DNA of 64,000 bases from Candidatus Saccharimonadota bacterium (GTDB lineage Bacteria; Patescibacteriota; Saccharimonadia; Saccharimonadales; Saccharimonadaceae), in NCBI GenBank assembly GCA_017519305.1, contig JAFWSN010000001.1:120296-184295 (forward strand), in the 5' to 3' direction. Below are positions 26,884 through 63,315 of this stretch, piece after piece. Below the pieces are notes generated by a model. It was not told the DNA's origin, searched no databases, and saw only the letters and a list, made by a program, of their open reading frames with translations. The position numbers and the translations under genes are program-made. Numbering within the stretch: the stretch's first letter is position 1; each line of letters opens with the position of its first letter.

Positions 26884-29329
26884 TTAAAAATCACAAATAG
26901 ATTATTTTTAGAGACATCTTCTATAATGCGTAAATACATATTATAGTGCAATGGTTTTATAAACTGTTTCTTTTAGTCTCTAAAAATAACTATTTTGTGA
27001 TTTTTTGTTGCAAAGCACAATTTGTTTATGCTAAAATAAAAGCATGAAGGGAATGTGTTGGACTGCGCAGAAAAAGCGTGGCATAGGTAGTGTCATAAAC
27101 CATGCTCTGGTATTGCTTGGTGTTTCGTTCCTGACGTTTTCATTGATTACTCTTAATACAGTTAGCGCCGCAACCGGACCGTTTAAAATTACTGACGCCA
27201 GTATTGCTGCTAAGTCGACCGACGTTGATGCTACTATTGTCAGCTTCGAAGACGCCGAAATAAACTCTTAAGCCACTTTCCATCGGCTGAACGACAGCGT
27301 TACTTATTTAGTTACGATTAGTAATATTGGCGACAAATCTTATACTATCAATTCTATTACAGACAATAATACCAACACGCATCTTACCTACAACTATTCT
27401 ACTCACGCGGGCGAAGAAATTGCTGCTGGCAGCGACCTAGCTTTAGAAGTAGAGATTGTTTATACTGATGTCGTTGCAGAAATCACTGATCGCGTTCAAA
27501 ACTTAGATATTGAATTTATTATCGACTATGAAGAGGAAGACGATATAGTGGTCCCGGACACTGGCGACGATGATGCCGTTGTACCAGATACTGGCGTCGG
27601 GACTAATGATGCTAGGTCTAAAGCCGATTTAATTCTTCCAACTACTACGGCTATTGGTATTATTCTCTTGGCGATTGGTTTATTTAGGAGCAAACTAAGT
27701 AACAAGACTAAAGTCGCTGCTCTTATCTTTGTTGGCACCCTTGCTGGAGTTTCAACAGCGCACGCCGTAAGCCGTAGCTTTGCTTTCGAATTTTGTGCCG
27801 ATGCCAATCTTAAGAACATTCTTGCCATTGTTATTGAGGGGCAAGATGGCTACACGGTAATCTCTTACGGCGACACTTTGGCGCTCGACGACCCGACCGC
27901 CAGTACCGGATACAAATTCTCTGGGTGGAAAGATGAAGTGGGGAACGACTTTGATCCAGCCGCGCCAATTGCCGACGACGCTACGATTCATCCAACTTTC
28001 TCGCCAATCCAGTATACTATAGCCGTAGATACGGATGGCGATGGGGCCGCAGATACTAACTTGGACGCTGTTTACGATACTTTTATAAGGCTTCCACAAA
28101 ATACCGCTAAAACCGGCTACGATCCGGGTGGCTGGACTGACGGCTACAATAATTATCTTAGTGGCGGCAGGGTTGTAAACCTTACTGCCGTGGACGGTGA
28201 TACGATTCAGCTTTCACCAGTCTATATTCCACATCAAATTGTGATTTCTTTCTCCCGTGGTGAAGGAGTCACCGATGCATCTGGTACGGTACAGGATAAG
28301 CAATTGGCTTATAATCAATCCGTTACTATGCCGAGCCGCGAAAATGGAGGTATTTTCTCTAGACCTGGCTACACTCAGACTGGATGGGAATGCGACGTGG
28401 CACCAGGCACAATATTCAGCCCAGGCGAGATCATTGTTAACTGGAATTATGATACTCCACGAGTAACTTGTAGTGCAGTTTGGACAGGGAATCAATATAC
28501 GATTCATTTTGTGAAAGGCGCCGACGACGCCACCGGTAGTATGGACGATATATCTTCTATTAGCTACGGAGATGATACTCCGCTACCGCTAAATACTTTT
28601 GCTCGTGAAGGATATCGTTTTACGGGTTGGAAATGGGGAAACTCTGGCGACTTGATTGAGGATGGTTCGAGTGCTGGGCAATTTGCTACTACGCAGGGGG
28701 CTACGGTGTCTCTTTGGGCACAATGGGAAGTGCTTCCTTATGCTATGCTAGATACCGGGTTAAATTTTAATAAAAAAATAAAAAAGATAGTTCACGGAGA
28801 GAATATTCCTGATGACTTTTTTGACTGGAATATTTTTGCTATTGAAATGGCCGATGCCTTGCCAGCAGATTTTGATACGGAAGATACAGCAAACATCATC
28901 TCTGCCCCAGATTCACCAATTAAGGTTTATGCTTGGTATGATAATGACGCTATCGATGTGACTGGCGATGAAATAAAAGATGGTGCAATATTTGTTTATT
29001 CCGATGCTAGTACCATTAAAGGTAATCCAGATATGAGTTATATGTTTTCGGGGACAGGAGATCTTTTCTCCGTATCTTTCCTAGAATATGTTGACACTTC
29101 CAGTACAACCGATATGAGCTATATGTTCTATTATACGGATCTCATTCCTCTCTCTATCCCCGCTATTAATACTGCAAATGTAACTAATATGTCTTATATG
29201 TTCGCCGATTCAAATGCAGTATATGAACCTCTTGTCCTTCCAGACTCCTTTGATACTTCAAATGTGACCGACATGTCTTACATGTTTTGGAACGTTCACA
29301 ATTCTGTATCGTTAACTCTTCCGGACACT

Positions 29330-49087: not shown

Positions 49088-50518
49088 ATGCATTTCAAGA
49101 CTATTTTCAAATCTCTCAAGAATAAAGACATGCTTCGCCGTGTTTTCATTATTCTTGGTATCCTAGTGGCCTATCGTCTGCTTGCCCACATTCCAGTACC
49201 GATGGGAAACGCATCAACTTTCCAGGAAGCTGTCGCTAACCTGCTCAATAAATCCGACTTCTCGAGCTTCCTTAACCTTATCTCTGGTGGTGGTCTTGCC
49301 TCATTCAGTATTATCTTAGTCGGTCTTTCACCATACATTACCGGCTCAATCATTATTCAGCTTCTCACCAAAGCGATTCCGTCTCTCGAAGAGCTTTCGC
49401 AAGATGGTGAAACTGGTCGTCGCAAGATCAACCAGTGGACCCGCATGCTCACTATTCCTCTAGCAATTGTTCAATCTATCGCTTATATCTTTATCCTTTA
49501 TCAATCTACCGTCGCAAACGGCGTTGGTACTTTTGAGCCAACCATGGGCGACTGGATTCTCTCTGTTACCGCTATGACCGCCGGTTCCGTCATCTTGATG
49601 TGGCTTGGTGAGCTCATTACCGAACAGGGCATCGGCAACGGTATTTCTATGATTATCTTCGCCTCTATTATTTCTCAGCTTCCAACCACGCTTGCTAGCC
49701 TCGGTGGCGCTTTGCTCGACACGACAAACGGCTCGCTTAGCCTCTTCGGTTGGTTTGAGCTCCCAGTTAACCCGACTATCTTCTGGATCACGCTCGGCTT
49801 CGCTATTGCTATGCTGGTAGTAATATTCTTCTTAGTCAAGCTCAACGAGGCTCAGAGGGTAATTACAATCAACTACGCTAAGCGTGTTCACGGTAACACT
49901 AGCTACGGCGGCATCAAATCAATCTTACCAATCAAGCTCATCGCCGCTGGCGTTATTCCAGTCATCTTCGCTACGGCTTTCTTGTCATTGCCAGCCCTTA
50001 TTGGCCAGGTAATTACATCGGTCAATCCAGAAAATACCCTCGGTACGACCTTAACAACACTCTTTACGGCGCCATCCGCCAGCAATTTCAGCACCATGTA
50101 TCCAGACGGTATCACTGCACAATGGTTCCTCTACCCAGCAATCTACTTCGTCCTAGTTATCATGTTCACCTATTTCTACACGTCAATCATCTTTAATACC
50201 AACGAGATTGCCGACAACCTCCAAAAACAAGGTGGCTTCATTGAGGGTGTTCGCCCAGGCATCACCACGGCCAAATATCTCGGCAAAGTTGTTAATCGCC
50301 TCAATCTCTTTGGTGCATTAGCTCTTGGCCTCATCGCTATGTTGCCATTCATTACAGACTATATCTTCATCGTTTTAATTGGCTATCCAATTGGTCTCTC
50401 TATCTCTGGTACTGGTCTTCTTATCGTGGTCACCGTCGCTCTTGAAAACCTCCGCTCTCTGGATTCCCGCGCGCTAATGGTAACATACGACGACTTCAGC
50501 AATGAATCTCAAGACTAG
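49088..50518 (+). CDS. secY: Preprotein translocase subunit SecY
   Basis: GLSPYITGSIIIQLL, GETGRRKINQWTR, GIGNGIS, AGVIPVIFA, GGFIEGVRPG. Confidence 0.98.
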   Translation: MHFKTIFKSLKNKDMLRRVFIILGILVAYRLLAHIPVPMGNASTFQEAVANLLNKSDFSSFLNLISGGGLASFSIILVGLSPYITGSIIIQLLTKAIPSLEELSQDGETGRRKINQWTRMLTIPLAIVQSIAYIFILYQSTVANGVGTFEPTMGDWILSVTAMTAGSVILMWLGELITEQGIGNGISMIIFASIISQLPTTLASLGGALLDTTNGSLSLFGWFELPVNPTIFWITLGFAIAMLVVIFFLVKLNEAQRVITINYAKRVHGNTSYGGIKSILPIKLIAAGVIPVIFATAFLSLPALIGQVITSVNPENTLGTTLTTLFTAPSASNFSTMYPDGITAQWFLYPAIYFVLVIMFTYFYTSIIFNTNEIADNLQKQGGFIEGVRPGITTAKYLGKVVNRLNLFGALALGLIAMLPFITDYIFIVLIGYPIGLSISGTGLLIVVTVALENLRSLDSRALMVTYDDFSNESQD

Positions 50519-51188
50519 GCACTGGGGGCGAATTGCATTAATCGTAGCTGGCGTACTCGTCGCCGGATTAATCTTGACATTCTTCCTTCGCGTCATGCTT
50601 TGGGAAAAAGATTACTACGAGCAGAAAAAAGGCTCCGAGCGAGCCCTTCCGGAACATGTCGAGATTGAGGGCGTCGTAGACGAAACCCCAATCACCGAAG
50701 AACAGATCGTAGAATACACGGTGGCCCCAGGAAGCCCACGCTATCTTACTATTGGCAAAATTGACGTCAGCCAGGCTAGAATTATCCAGGTAGGCACGCT
50801 TAAAAACGGCGAAATGGGCACACCAAACAATATTTTTGACGCCGGCTGGTATAACCAGACTAATCGCCCGGGCGAAGGTGGCAAAATCATTATTGATGGA
50901 CACAATGGTGGTCCAACCAAATCAGGTATCTTTAAGAGGCTCCCAGAGCTCGAAAATGGCGACATCGTCTCAATTGAACGTGGCGATGGTATGAAATTCG
51001 ACTACCGTGTTGTCGAGAGCGTTAGCCGCGAAGTAAAAACCGGCGCAGCTAGTACTGAGATGCTTAAAGCCTTTCAAACACCAAATGTCGAGACCGTCGT
51101 TTTGATCACTTGTACTGGCGAATGGCTCGAGAACGAGAGCACTTATAGTCAACGCCAATTCGTCTACGCCGAGCTGGTTACCGAATAG
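50502..51188 (+). CDS. Sortase (class F-like)
   Basis: N-terminal membrane anchor; AGWY, IIIDGH (His), LITC (Cys), SQR (Arg); 17-bp overlap with secY. Confidence 0.85.
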   Translation: MNLKTRHWGRIALIVAGVLVAGLILTFFLRVMLWEKDYYEQKKGSERALPEHVEIEGVVDETPITEEQIVEYTVAPGSPRYLTIGKIDVSQARIIQVGTLKNGEMGTPNNIFDAGWYNQTNRPGEGGKIIIDGHNGGPTKSGIFKRLPELENGDIVSIERGDGMKFDYRVVESVSREVKTGAASTEMLKAFQTPNVETVVLITCTGEWLENESTYSQRQFVYAELVTE

Positions 51189-60879: not shown

Positions 60880-63315
60880 GTGGGAAAAATTAAGGTTTTT
60901 CTGGCTGCGTTAGCGCTTTGCGCGGTGCCAGTAATTCTATATTCTACCGCTTCAGCAGCGGGGAACTTTGGACTAGAAAATATTACGGTGCTTGATAAAG
61001 CTACTGACGTTGTTGCGGAAACGCCAACTGTTTCCGGCAATACCGCAACCTCCACGATCATTTTCCACCAACTAGACGACTATGTCGTGTACAATTTAAG
61101 CCTAAAAAACTCCACTTCTACTTCTTTTCAAATCCTAGACATCACGGACGACAACGCTAGTGAATTGGTAGAATACTCATACGATAACCACGCAGACGAG
61201 GTGGTCGAATCCGGTGAGGCGCTCAATCTCGAAGTCACTATTACCTACGTGCAGGAGCACCTAGACGACAGTGATCGTACTATCGACAACAATGTTAAAT
61301 TCACAGTTTCCTACCTAGACTTACTGACCGGCGAGGTCGAAGAAGACGAAGTGGTCTTAGTGCCGAATACCGGTGCGAGCACATTTCTGGGCGGGATTTT
61401 TAGTAGTGCCTCCAACGCTATCGTCTTGGCTGCCCTAATTTTGGCTGGCATTGCGTTTGTTGTCGCACTTATTTATAAAAAGAAACGTGCCGTGTTGGTC
61501 TTGGCTTTTGCGATCATGTCTGTTGTTGCTGGCTTCTCTTACATGAATGCTGTAGCTGAAGAGGCTGAAGATATGGACATAACGTTTAGTAGTGAAATCA
61601 GATTGAGAGACTATGTCTATGGCGAAGTCTATTATAAGGACTCTTATACTGGCGAGGACGCCTATATGGATCCTGAAGAATTTGGCGGCCCTATGCCTTA
61701 TACTGAATGTTTGGAAAATGAATATTGGTATTGTCGCTACTTTGGTGATATTTTTGACCCTGAATGGTGGGATGCTCCACAGGGCTTGATGATTACTGGT
61801 TTTCAATTTACTGGCACCAATACGGAAGTTGACCCAGAGGCACTTATTTTGGATGATTTTAGTGTGACTATTATCTATGGTGAGCCAACATTTAACATTA
61901 CTTATGATTATGAAGGCGGTACGGTGGCAGAAGCTAATCCTGCTTCCGTTAAGGCTTCTGATGAACCGTTTACTTTGCATGCACCGACTAAAGATGGGGT
62001 ATTATTCGGCTGTTGGCAAGAGTCTGGTATGCCGGCGGGTCAGTGTCAGAGTGAAATAACTATCAACCCAAGTGAATTAACCAGAGATTTGCATTATAAA
62101 GCTATTTATGAGTTTGAAGCTGTAATTTATGACCAATATGGGAACGAGCTCGAGCGTGGTAGAGCGATTGACGGCGTTGGGCTTGGTTCAGGTTATTATT
62201 ATTCCGTTGTATTTATGAACGTGTCTGGGTATAAAGTTAATAGTGGTTCTTGCACTAACGGTCAGCGCCTAAGATATATGGGTAGCAGTACCGCTCCTTA
62301 TCCTTCATATGAGGTAGATAGTATTTCTGCAAGTACCGTTTGTACGCTTAATATTGTAACCGTCCCAATGGAAGTTAGTTTGAATGTCATTGGTGGAACT
62401 GGCTCTGGAACGCTCAATGTGGCGCTTGGTGAAGATGCAATTTTTGAGAATATAACAGCAAATGCAGGTTACATGTTGGCAGACAGTGTAAGTTGTACTA
62501 ACGATCAGACTGCTGCAATTTCCGGGAACAAAGTGGTTGTCAGTAATGTTACTAAAAATACTCAATGTACTGTCAGGAACACTCAGCTTTCATTTTACAC
62601 TATGACCGAAATGCAACAGATGACTCCTGAAATGTGCGCGTCGGCCACCACGCCGAATGTGGGAGCAACTCAGTTTGATGCCACTGGGAATTATAAAAAC
62701 AACAAAAACTATATTCCGCGCAGAACCCTCGTCGATACACGTGATAACAAAACTTATCAAGTTTCTAAGCTTGCCGATGGCAAATGTTGGATGACTCAGA
62801 ACCTAGCTATAGGAAACGCCGAAGCTACAATGACGCTCACTCCAGAAGACTCTGATGTCCTCGGTGCCTTTACGTTGCCAAAAAGCGATATAACTGTTTT
62901 TGCGGGCACCGTAGATATTAGCGCTGTTTATGTTGATGATACATTTGGCGGGTACTATTCTTCGAGGACTGCTAATGCGGACTCTGTGCAGGCTGGGGAT
63001 GCATCGATTTGTCCGAAAGGCTGGACGTTGCCAACTATCACGAATACCTCTGGTGATTGGACGAATTTGATTAATAAATATAATTACTCTAGCGTTCGCT
63101 CGCTTTACAATGAACCAATTAATCTCACTCATAGCTATTATGTTAAAAATGGTGCGATTTATCGCAATAATGTGTTTGATACATATTATATTGGTCCTAC
63201 AGTGAATAGCGCGTATTCATTTAGTAGCTTGGGTGTTACCATAAACGATAACTGGACGGGTACTTCTAGAATTGAAAGTGGCGAAGGCGGAAACGTCCGC
63301 TGTATTGCGAGATAA
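60880..63315 (+). CDS. Surface protein with internal VPNTG motif, InlB-B-like repeats and C-terminal FISUMP (Fib_succ_major) domain
   Basis: Signal peptide; VPNTG 61360-61374; TM-KKKR-hydrophobic-AVA; DTRDNKTY, GKCWMTQNL, SICPKGWTLP, NVRCI. Confidence 0.82.
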   Translation: MGKIKVFLAALALCAVPVILYSTASAAGNFGLENITVLDKATDVVAETPTVSGNTATSTIIFHQLDDYVVYNLSLKNSTSTSFQILDITDDNASELVEYSYDNHADEVVESGEALNLEVTITYVQEHLDDSDRTIDNNVKFTVSYLDLLTGEVEEDEVVLVPNTGASTFLGGIFSSASNAIVLAALILAGIAFVVALIYKKKRAVLVLAFAIMSVVAGFSYMNAVAEEAEDMDITFSSEIRLRDYVYGEVYYKDSYTGEDAYMDPEEFGGPMPYTECLENEYWYCRYFGDIFDPEWWDAPQGLMITGFQFTGTNTEVDPEALILDDFSVTIIYGEPTFNITYDYEGGTVAEANPASVKASDEPFTLHAPTKDGVLFGCWQESGMPAGQCQSEITINPSELTRDLHYKAIYEFEAVIYDQYGNELERGRAIDGVGLGSGYYYSVVFMNVSGYKVNSGSCTNGQRLRYMGSSTAPYPSYEVDSISASTVCTLNIVTVPMEVSLNVIGGTGSGTLNVALGEDAIFENITANAGYMLADSVSCTNDQTAAISGNKVVVSNVTKNTQCTVRNTQLSFYTMTEMQQMTPEMCASATTPNVGATQFDATGNYKNNKNYIPRRTLVDTRDNKTYQVSKLADGKCWMTQNLAIGNAEATMTLTPEDSDVLGAFTLPKSDITVFAGTVDISAVYVDDTFGGYYSSRTANADSVQAGDASICPKGWTLPTITNTSGDWTNLINKYNYSSVRSLYNEPINLTHSYYVKNGAIYRNNVFDTYYIGPTVNSAYSFSSLGVTINDNWTGTSRIESGEGGNVRCIAR

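Follow-up and report, generated by a model that had tools for sequence, protein, structure and literature searches.

A putative "split anchor" cassette at the N-terminus of adhesin-like surface proteins in a Saccharibacteria genome

Introduction

Streptococcal M26 zinc metalloproteases carry a signal peptide, an atypical N-terminal LPXTG motif and two hydrophobic segments (Bek-Thomsen et al., PMC3518915). The region has also been described as an N-terminal domain of 200 amino acids (aa) with three transmembrane (TM) segments and an LPXTG anchor (PMC2225412), and the motif located there is needed for correct localisation of the proteases (PMC3518915). A secretion model with two signal-peptidase sites, S1 and S2, is credited in PMC3518915 to two studies of 2006, by Bender & Weiser and by Takenouchi-Ohkubo et al. 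Cleavage of the M26 IgA1 protease is stated to lie 56 residues downstream of LPXTG (PMC9637739). Here we describe a gene of comparable layout, P1, which occupies positions 60880-63315 on the forward strand of a 64,000-nucleotide stretch of a Candidatus Saccharimonadota genome. The whole stretch, referred to as the window, corresponds to C10:120296-184295, where C10 is the contig, in a genome of 786 kb that is 97% complete; coordinates given without the contig name are those of the window.

Saccharibacteria live attached to other bacteria, and to our knowledge the way in which they display host-binding proteins is largely unknown. A first-pass annotation of the window proposed that P1 and a paralog might each yield two separately exported parts, and added that no system of this kind had been described. 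That last statement was wrong, as the same order of elements is known for the streptococcal IgA1 protease/ZmpA, ZmpB, ZmpC and ZmpD (PMC3518915). For the cassette in Saccharibacteria, a literature search found no paper.

Architecture of the cassette

P1 has a GTG start and encodes 811 aa, arranged as a signal peptide, a ~130-aa immunoglobulin (Ig)-like domain, a VPNTG motif, a first TM segment (TM1), the basic cluster KKKR, a second hydrophobic segment (TM2), an A-x-A site and a long cargo region. The predicted signal peptide (60880-60957, aa 1-26) ends in STASA/A, as judged from the columns of the family alignment and from a helix at aa 3-22 in an AlphaFold2 (AF2) model. The N-domain that follows (60958-61344, aa 27-155) is a predicted Ig-like beta-sandwich, homologous among four paralogs, and is the piece that we predict to become linked to the wall. 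The sortase-type motif, VPNTG in an LVPNTG context, lies in a flexible linker at 61360-61374 (aa 161-165), ahead of TM1 at 61405-61473 (aa 176-198), which would form the hydrophobic part of a sorting signal. The KKKR cluster (61477-61488, aa 200-203) is encoded by an A-rich run and would serve at once as the basic tail of that sorting signal and as the n-region of a second signal peptide, within a predicted cytoplasmic loop. TM2, at 61489-61557 (aa 204-226), ends in AVA/E, with AVA itself at 61549-61557 (aa 224-226); with its KKKR n-region, an uncharged run of ~18 residues and small residues at -3 and -1, it has the sequence features expected of a signal peptide recognised by Sec and signal peptidase I. 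The AVA site is followed by EE and in all by 585 further residues, the cargo (61558-63315, aa 227-811), which consists of a beta-hairpin at aa 231-244, B-repeat-like units and a C-terminal FISUMP-like domain. Since 608 residues of the 816-aa stop-to-stop frame follow the basic tail, the sorting signal is internal, not C-terminal. Hydropathy, alignment columns and AF2 form the basis of these TM and signal-peptide calls.

The AF2 model of full-length P1, computed with an alignment of 91 sequences, has a pLDDT of 83 and a pTM of 0.48, the latter being uninformative, in either direction, about docking between the N-domain and the cargo. It places a confident all-beta N-domain at aa 30-147 and a beta-rich cargo on either side of a disordered motif linker (aa 155-178, pLDDT < 50), a helical hairpin whose arms correspond to TM1 (aa 178-198) and TM2 (aa 202-221), and a second disordered stretch (aa 222-230) that covers the A-x-A site. 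Both candidate cleavage sites are predicted to sit in disordered linkers that flank the helical hairpin. When modelled alone, the N-domain reaches a pLDDT of 93.8 and a pTM of 0.85. Its best Foldseek matches in the PDB are generic Ig-like sandwiches with TM-scores of at most 0.5 (FixG-related, adaptin ears, MSP, TRAP), the full-length model retrieves generic multi-Ig proteins alone, and a sequence profile of the N-domain has no match among PDB chains. No Pfam or NCBIfam model matches the N-domain above threshold, and neither library covers the cassette. Below threshold, DUF7507 is detected in 14 of 34 members (best E 7.9e-05), with P1 at 14.6 bits where the cut-off is 27, and DUF11 in 5 of the 34.

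Conservation of the predicted processing sites

A tblastn search with the module found four cassette genes in the genome, which we designate P1 to P4. The homologous N-domain that the first-pass annotation had proposed for P1 and P4 holds for the four genes together, whose modules share 25 invariant columns, including F62, H63, D67, Y71, N77, I85, I88, T89, D90, N92, Y99, Y101, H104, E107 and R133. The elements listed there (VPxTG, TM segment, basic cluster, second hydrophobic segment and A-x-A) are likewise all present in P1 and P4, at positions given above and below. The closest relatives of P1 are found in Candidatus Nanosyncoccus and in other Saccharibacteria metagenome-assembled genomes (MAGs).

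With a profile built from the four modules we searched 1.84 billion cluster representatives. This gave 893 matches at E <= 1e-3, of which 462 reach <= 1e-10 and 83 reach <= 1e-30. In almost all of the 150 matches listed of the 893, the matched region begins inside the first ~30 residues and extends to about residue 230. These proteins mostly have lengths of 600-2500 aa, anything shorter being a fragment. Of these top 150 representatives, 133 show exactly two hydrophobic segments beyond residue 100, and in 127 the pattern xPx[TS][GSAND] stands directly ahead of the first segment. The 17 representatives that depart from the two-segment layout include frameshifted or truncated fragments, together with five proteins of full length whose TM1 and TM2 the scan had merged into one segment. 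Of 20 clusters looked up for the taxonomy of distant members, four have a named member, and two of the names give an organism (a Bacilli MAG and Saccharibacteria).

The alignment of 91 full-length sequences has a mean column identity of 11%, and its sole invariant columns are P162 and T164 of the xPxT motif. The second candidate signal-peptidase site is nearly as constant, with Ala at -1 in 90 of 91 sequences and Val (43) or Ala (39) at -3 in 82; position -2 is mostly Lys, Pro occupies -6 in 40 of 91, and the +1 residue is variable (A33, E30, V7 and others). For comparison, the first signal-peptidase site has Ala at -1 in 88 of 91 and A, V, T or S at -3. The loop between the two hydrophobic segments is short (median 8 residues) and strongly basic, with 398 Lys and Arg against 22 Asp and Glu in total over the family. 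TM1 has a median uncharged run of 23 residues and TM2 of ~18, and a median of 58 residues (range 44-81) separates the motif Thr from the -1 Ala of the second site. The idea that the VPxTG and A-x-A sites belong to one conserved unit, raised when the window was annotated, has thus been put to a conservation test and a profile search: both sites are kept in homologs, above all else in the protein, and the module is widespread.

Within TM1 (aa ~185-195 of P1) there is a recurrent S-x-x-G-L pattern, often followed by Cys, as in ISSIGLIVC, which is unusual for the hydrophobic part of a sorting signal. Its conservation may reflect packing against TM2.

The commonest forms of the motif among the top 150 are VPNTG (23), NPKTG (21), VPDTG (12), NPNTG (11) and NPKTN (8). 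The commonest form other than the VPxTG type is NPKT[GN]D, and one of its carriers comes from a cluster to which NCBI gives the name "Bacilli bacterium"; many members of the family have either this form or NPNTGD. The first motif residue is phylogenetically structured, as a tree of the N-module requires 38 changes in it, against 61.7 for shuffled labels. Such a structure is consistent with a motif adapted to the resident sortase. His follows the motif Thr in the T/APNTHD of three loci from Saccharibacteria MAGs (L008-L010), at about residues 185-190 of frames of 988-995 aa; elsewhere W, Y, L, K and E are also found in this place, and Asp is frequent at +2 (72 of 112).

Cognate motif, processing enzymes and paralogs

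We scanned all open reading frames of the genome for xPxT[GSAN] followed by a hydrophobic run and a basic cluster. The scan returned the four internal cases and at least five ordinary C-terminal substrates with a TM segment and a K/R tail: AVPDTG (297 aa), SVPDTG (1769 aa), AVPNTG (657 aa), VPETG in two fragments at contig ends, and VPNTS..NPNTD (516 aa). Because these C-terminal substrates end in VP[DNE]TG or VPNTS, the internal motif is the genome's own sorting motif. A charged spacer between motif and TM segment is common to the ordinary substrates, P2 and P4. The candidate sortase peptides of the cassette are EVVLVPNTGAST and AVVPDTGVGT.

Genes for the enzymes that the cassette would need are present. 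The candidate VPxTG enzyme is a 228-aa sortase encoded on the forward strand at 50502-51188 (PF04203, E = 3.4e-18), nearest to class F but with 85 bits against a class cut-off of 166. Its start lies 17 bases inside the end of secY (49088-50518; overlap 50502-50518), and from this overlap the export of substrates and the enzyme that sorts them appear to be translationally coupled. Outside the window, an open frame from C10:376619 on the forward strand encodes another sortase, the second of the genome, whose N-terminal extension is long; it scores 73.5 bits with TIGR01076 and is nearest to class C at 86.6 bits, below the cut-off. A type I signal peptidase, also outside the window, is encoded on the reverse strand at C10:188379-189038 (TIGR02227, 103 bits against a cut-off of 47).

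The paralogs share the cassette and vary in detail. P2 (C10:192321-194981, reverse strand) encodes 887 aa, is 61% identical to P1 and reads LVPNTG...KKKKG...AVA/ED. P3 lies outside the window on the forward strand (C10:66114-73763) and encodes 2550 aa with GNPNTSD, a TM segment, a basic loop and a second TM segment ending in AKA/L. Its motif is NPNTSD in place of VPxTG, similar to the NPNTDD of the 516-aa C-terminal substrate, and its cargo has many B-repeats, a CX5R tyrosine-phosphatase motif (HCRVGSDRTG) and PARCEL repeats at the C-terminus. P4 (27044-30250, forward strand) has the same cassette ahead of a DUF285/PARCEL cargo. It carries VPDTG twice (27551-27565 and 27581-27595), followed by TM1 (LILPTTTAIGIILLAIGLF, 27629-27685), the basic loop RSKLSNKTK (27686-27712) and TM2 (27713-27766), which ends in AHA at 27758-27766.

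P4 is interrupted by an in-frame TAA at 27269-27271, within the conserved N-domain and with homology on either side. A 1065-aa database protein, P0009, is identical to P4 except for Glu (GAA) at this codon, so the stop in the assembly amounts to a single-base change of GAA to TAA. This change is either a polymorphism, a nonsense allele that arose very recently, or an error in the assembly.

A model for export and processing

We hypothesize that residues ~1-230 constitute a conserved N-terminal "split anchor" cassette on which Sec, signal peptidase I and sortase act, a reading of the sequences and structural models that we consider fairly probable. Hypothetically, the first signal peptide would begin export and the Ig-like N-domain would cross the membrane. 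The sorting signal (VPNTG, TM1 and KKKR) would then act as a stop-transfer sequence, leaving KKKR in the cytoplasm, and TM2, with KKKR as its n-region, would act as an internal signal peptide that re-starts translocation, so that the adhesin-like cargo is exported as well. Signal peptidase I would cut at ASA/A (26/27) and at AVA/E (226/227), and sortase would cut between T164 and G165 and join the N-domain to the wall. A hairpin of ~62 residues, TM1-loop-TM2, would remain in the membrane. The expected products are a wall-bound Ig-like domain and a membrane-free cargo, either released or held non-covalently at the surface.

From the elements, their order and conservation, the cognate motif and the enzyme genes, we infer the two cleavages and the place where the cargo finally resides. 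The earlier reading of two exported parts, its claim to be without precedent set aside, fits the conservation of motif and site, the basic loop, the cognate motif and the presence of the enzyme genes. Three points weigh against it. After both cuts the cargo is left without a recognised anchor of its own, and the retention of an adhesin is then unexplained. Both sortases fall under the NCBIfam class cut-offs, and the acting enzyme and its specificity are unassigned. Finally, the residue after the motif Thr is Gly in just 71 of 91 sequences, with S, N, H, W, Y and L also seen.

The retention of the cargo invites an addition to the split-anchor model, which we offer tentatively: the wall-linked N-domain may dock the released adhesin non-covalently, through the conserved beta-hairpin and B-repeat unit that follow the second site. 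If so, and this is a possibility we would not press, Saccharibacteria and some Bacilli could use the dock to mount, exchange and possibly shed varied host-binding cargoes. It is similarly speculative that frameshifts in the A-runs of the lysine codons could toggle the gene between "dock only" and "dock plus adhesin".

Retention would also be accounted for if processing stopped half way, with sortase anchoring the N-domain while TM2 stays uncut and the G165-TM1-loop-TM2 hairpin tethers the cargo to the membrane. The sorting signal is complete and cognate, as this alternative requires, and the median uncharged run of TM2 can span a membrane. However, the -3/-1 pattern and the helix-breaking Pro at -6 of the second site are as tightly kept as the first signal-peptidase site, and the second site lies in a predicted disordered, exposed stretch; we regard an uncut TM2 as unlikely.

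We consider it decidedly unlikely that neither site is used and that the product is a single polytopic protein, anchored by an uncleaved TM1/TM2 hairpin with KKKR inside and two ectodomains outside. Such a hairpin anchor had been the second option of the first-pass annotation. The helical hairpin that AF2 predicts at aa 178-221 would suit such an anchor, the S-x-x-G-L pattern of TM1 could aid helix packing, and the cargo would be kept on the cell without any extra assumption. With the motifs unused, however, this arrangement leaves unexplained why Pro and Thr are the only invariant columns of the family, why the second site has Ala at -1 in 90 of 91 sequences with Val or Ala at -3, and why the internal motif matches the C-terminal sorting motif of the genome.

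A further alternative is that sortase cuts and rejoins, moving the N-domain onto the new N-terminus of the cargo or onto a lysine, either in the cargo or at K76 of another N-domain. The second sortase is nearest to the pilin-type class C (86.6 bits, below the cut-off), and K76-N77 is fairly conserved. Rejoining onto the new N-terminus was discarded on the unconserved +1 residue past the second site. K76 was discarded as a pilin-type lysine, being Lys in just 75 of 91 sequences and Ser in P4, and no pilin motif or isopeptide domain was detected in the Pfam and NCBIfam scans. We regard any such transfer or polymerisation as very improbable.

That the layout is an artefact, in which a small LPXTG protein gene and an adhesin gene were fused by a sequencing or assembly error or by a lost stop codon, would agree with the A-rich KKKR run and with two database relatives truncated by frameshift exactly there, but has next to no likelihood given the unbroken frame in four paralogs, in Nanosyncoccus and other Saccharibacteria MAGs and in 133 of the top 150 representatives from many assemblies, and given that a targeted search for standalone forms returned just the two frameshifted fragments. 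An origin from two genes, one of them an N-domain with a normal C-terminal sorting signal, was discarded with it: the only two short proteins found are both frameshifts in the A-run (KKKK), which indicates that the fused form is the norm. Whether they are real or arise in sequencing, frameshifts in this run turn the gene into one for a short protein with an ordinary C-terminal sorting signal. The basic loop of P2 (codons for LLKKKKG; proteins P0189 and P0005) is encoded by the A-rich run AAGAAAAAGAAAGG, and a -1 shift in it gives ...KALRRFLS, exactly as in the truncated database protein P0189.

Possible exchange of cargo

The distal cargo differs among the proteins that share the cassette. FISUMP-like domains end P1 and P2. 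In P1 the family is recognised below threshold (TIGR02145, 36.9 against 41.65 bits), as is Flg_new (23.4 bits), and FISUMP passes its cut-off in relatives such as P0019 (60.6 bits). The cargo of P4 consists of DUF285/PARCEL repeats (DUF285, 199.5 bits), and P3 and its relatives have a tyrosine-phosphatase domain beside InlB B-repeats and PARCEL repeats. When P1, P4 and seven relatives were scanned with Pfam and NCBIfam, the only domains detected were Flg_new, DUF285/PARCEL, FISUMP and Y_phosphatase3. The cargo identities given in the first-pass annotation, FISUMP in P1 and DUF285 in P4, are therefore confirmed, the former below threshold. Its description of the cargoes as unrelated applies to these distal domains; it does not extend to the first ~100 aa past the A-x-A site, which are conserved family-wide. 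There, the beta-hairpin at aa 231-244, in which residue 242 is L, F or I throughout and D244 is kept in 80 of 91, is followed by a B-repeat-like unit.

We mapped cargo type, labelled crudely by sequence motifs, onto a FastTree tree of the short N-module, both of which are rough. The distal cargo changes 51 times on this tree, against a shuffled mean of 58.8 and a shuffled minimum of 52. A distribution so near to random fits frequent exchange of cargo behind a conserved cassette.

With four cassette genes in a genome of 0.79 Mb, against at least five ordinary C-terminal signals in the same scan, the cassette appears to be a major route of surface display in this Saccharibacteria genome and no oddity. 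More broadly, the family shows the "atypical" N-terminal sortase signal of the IgA1 proteases to be a general modular solution, which has either originated within or moved into an unrelated family of proteins that counts hundreds of members. Current annotation is blind to the cassette, and a cassette profile would improve the annotation of surface proteomes in the candidate phyla radiation (CPR) and in gut and rumen Firmicutes. The family would also provide a second, independent system for probing the Zmp secretion model, which is still unresolved.

Relation to described systems

Four kinds of described protein bear comparison with the cassette. The canonical C-terminal sorting signal likewise has a pentapeptide with invariant Pro and Thr, a hydrophobic stretch of ~23 residues and a basic tail. 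The signal of the cassette differs in being internal (aa 161-203 of 811 in P1) and in reading on, unbroken by a stop, through a second signal peptide and 585 further residues.

Class B sortase signals (NPQTN, NPKTG) resemble the family members with NPKT[GN]D. SrtB of B. anthracis, a class B enzyme, requires NPKTG and an Asp at P2' (PMC11987632), and the match to these family members includes the P2' Asp. The proteins of the window, in contrast, carry VPNTG or VPDTG, and the sortases of the genome are nearest to class F and class C.

Surface proteins with InlB B-repeats, BspA-like leucine-rich repeats or FISUMP domains have the same cargo domains, and relatives bear NCBI names taken from the cargo alone ("InlB B-repeat-containing protein", "BspA family leucine-rich repeat surface protein"). 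Their annotations are silent on the N-terminal cassette.

The closest comparison is with the Zmp-type layout, which has in the same way an N-terminal signal peptide, a sortase motif near the N-terminus and two hydrophobic segments, the second followed by a signal-peptidase site. The distance from motif to site is also similar, 56 residues as stated for the protease and a median of 58 in the cassette family. This likeness is one of layout. Unlike the Zmp proteins, the cassette proteins have neither the M26 (HEXXH...E) nor the G5 domain (Pfam and NCBIfam scans of P1, P4 and seven relatives), and a conserved, folded Ig-like domain of ~130 aa stands between their signal peptide and the motif. They have VPxTG or NPxTx where the Zmp proteins have LPXTG, their distal cargoes are interchangeable (FISUMP, DUF285/PARCEL, tyrosine phosphatase), and the hosts include Saccharibacteria. 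As they lack the M26 and G5 domains, the cassette family is an analogue of the Zmp proteins and not a member of their group. The layout was already known; what is new is a large, unannotated and reusable cassette that carries many adhesin-like cargoes.

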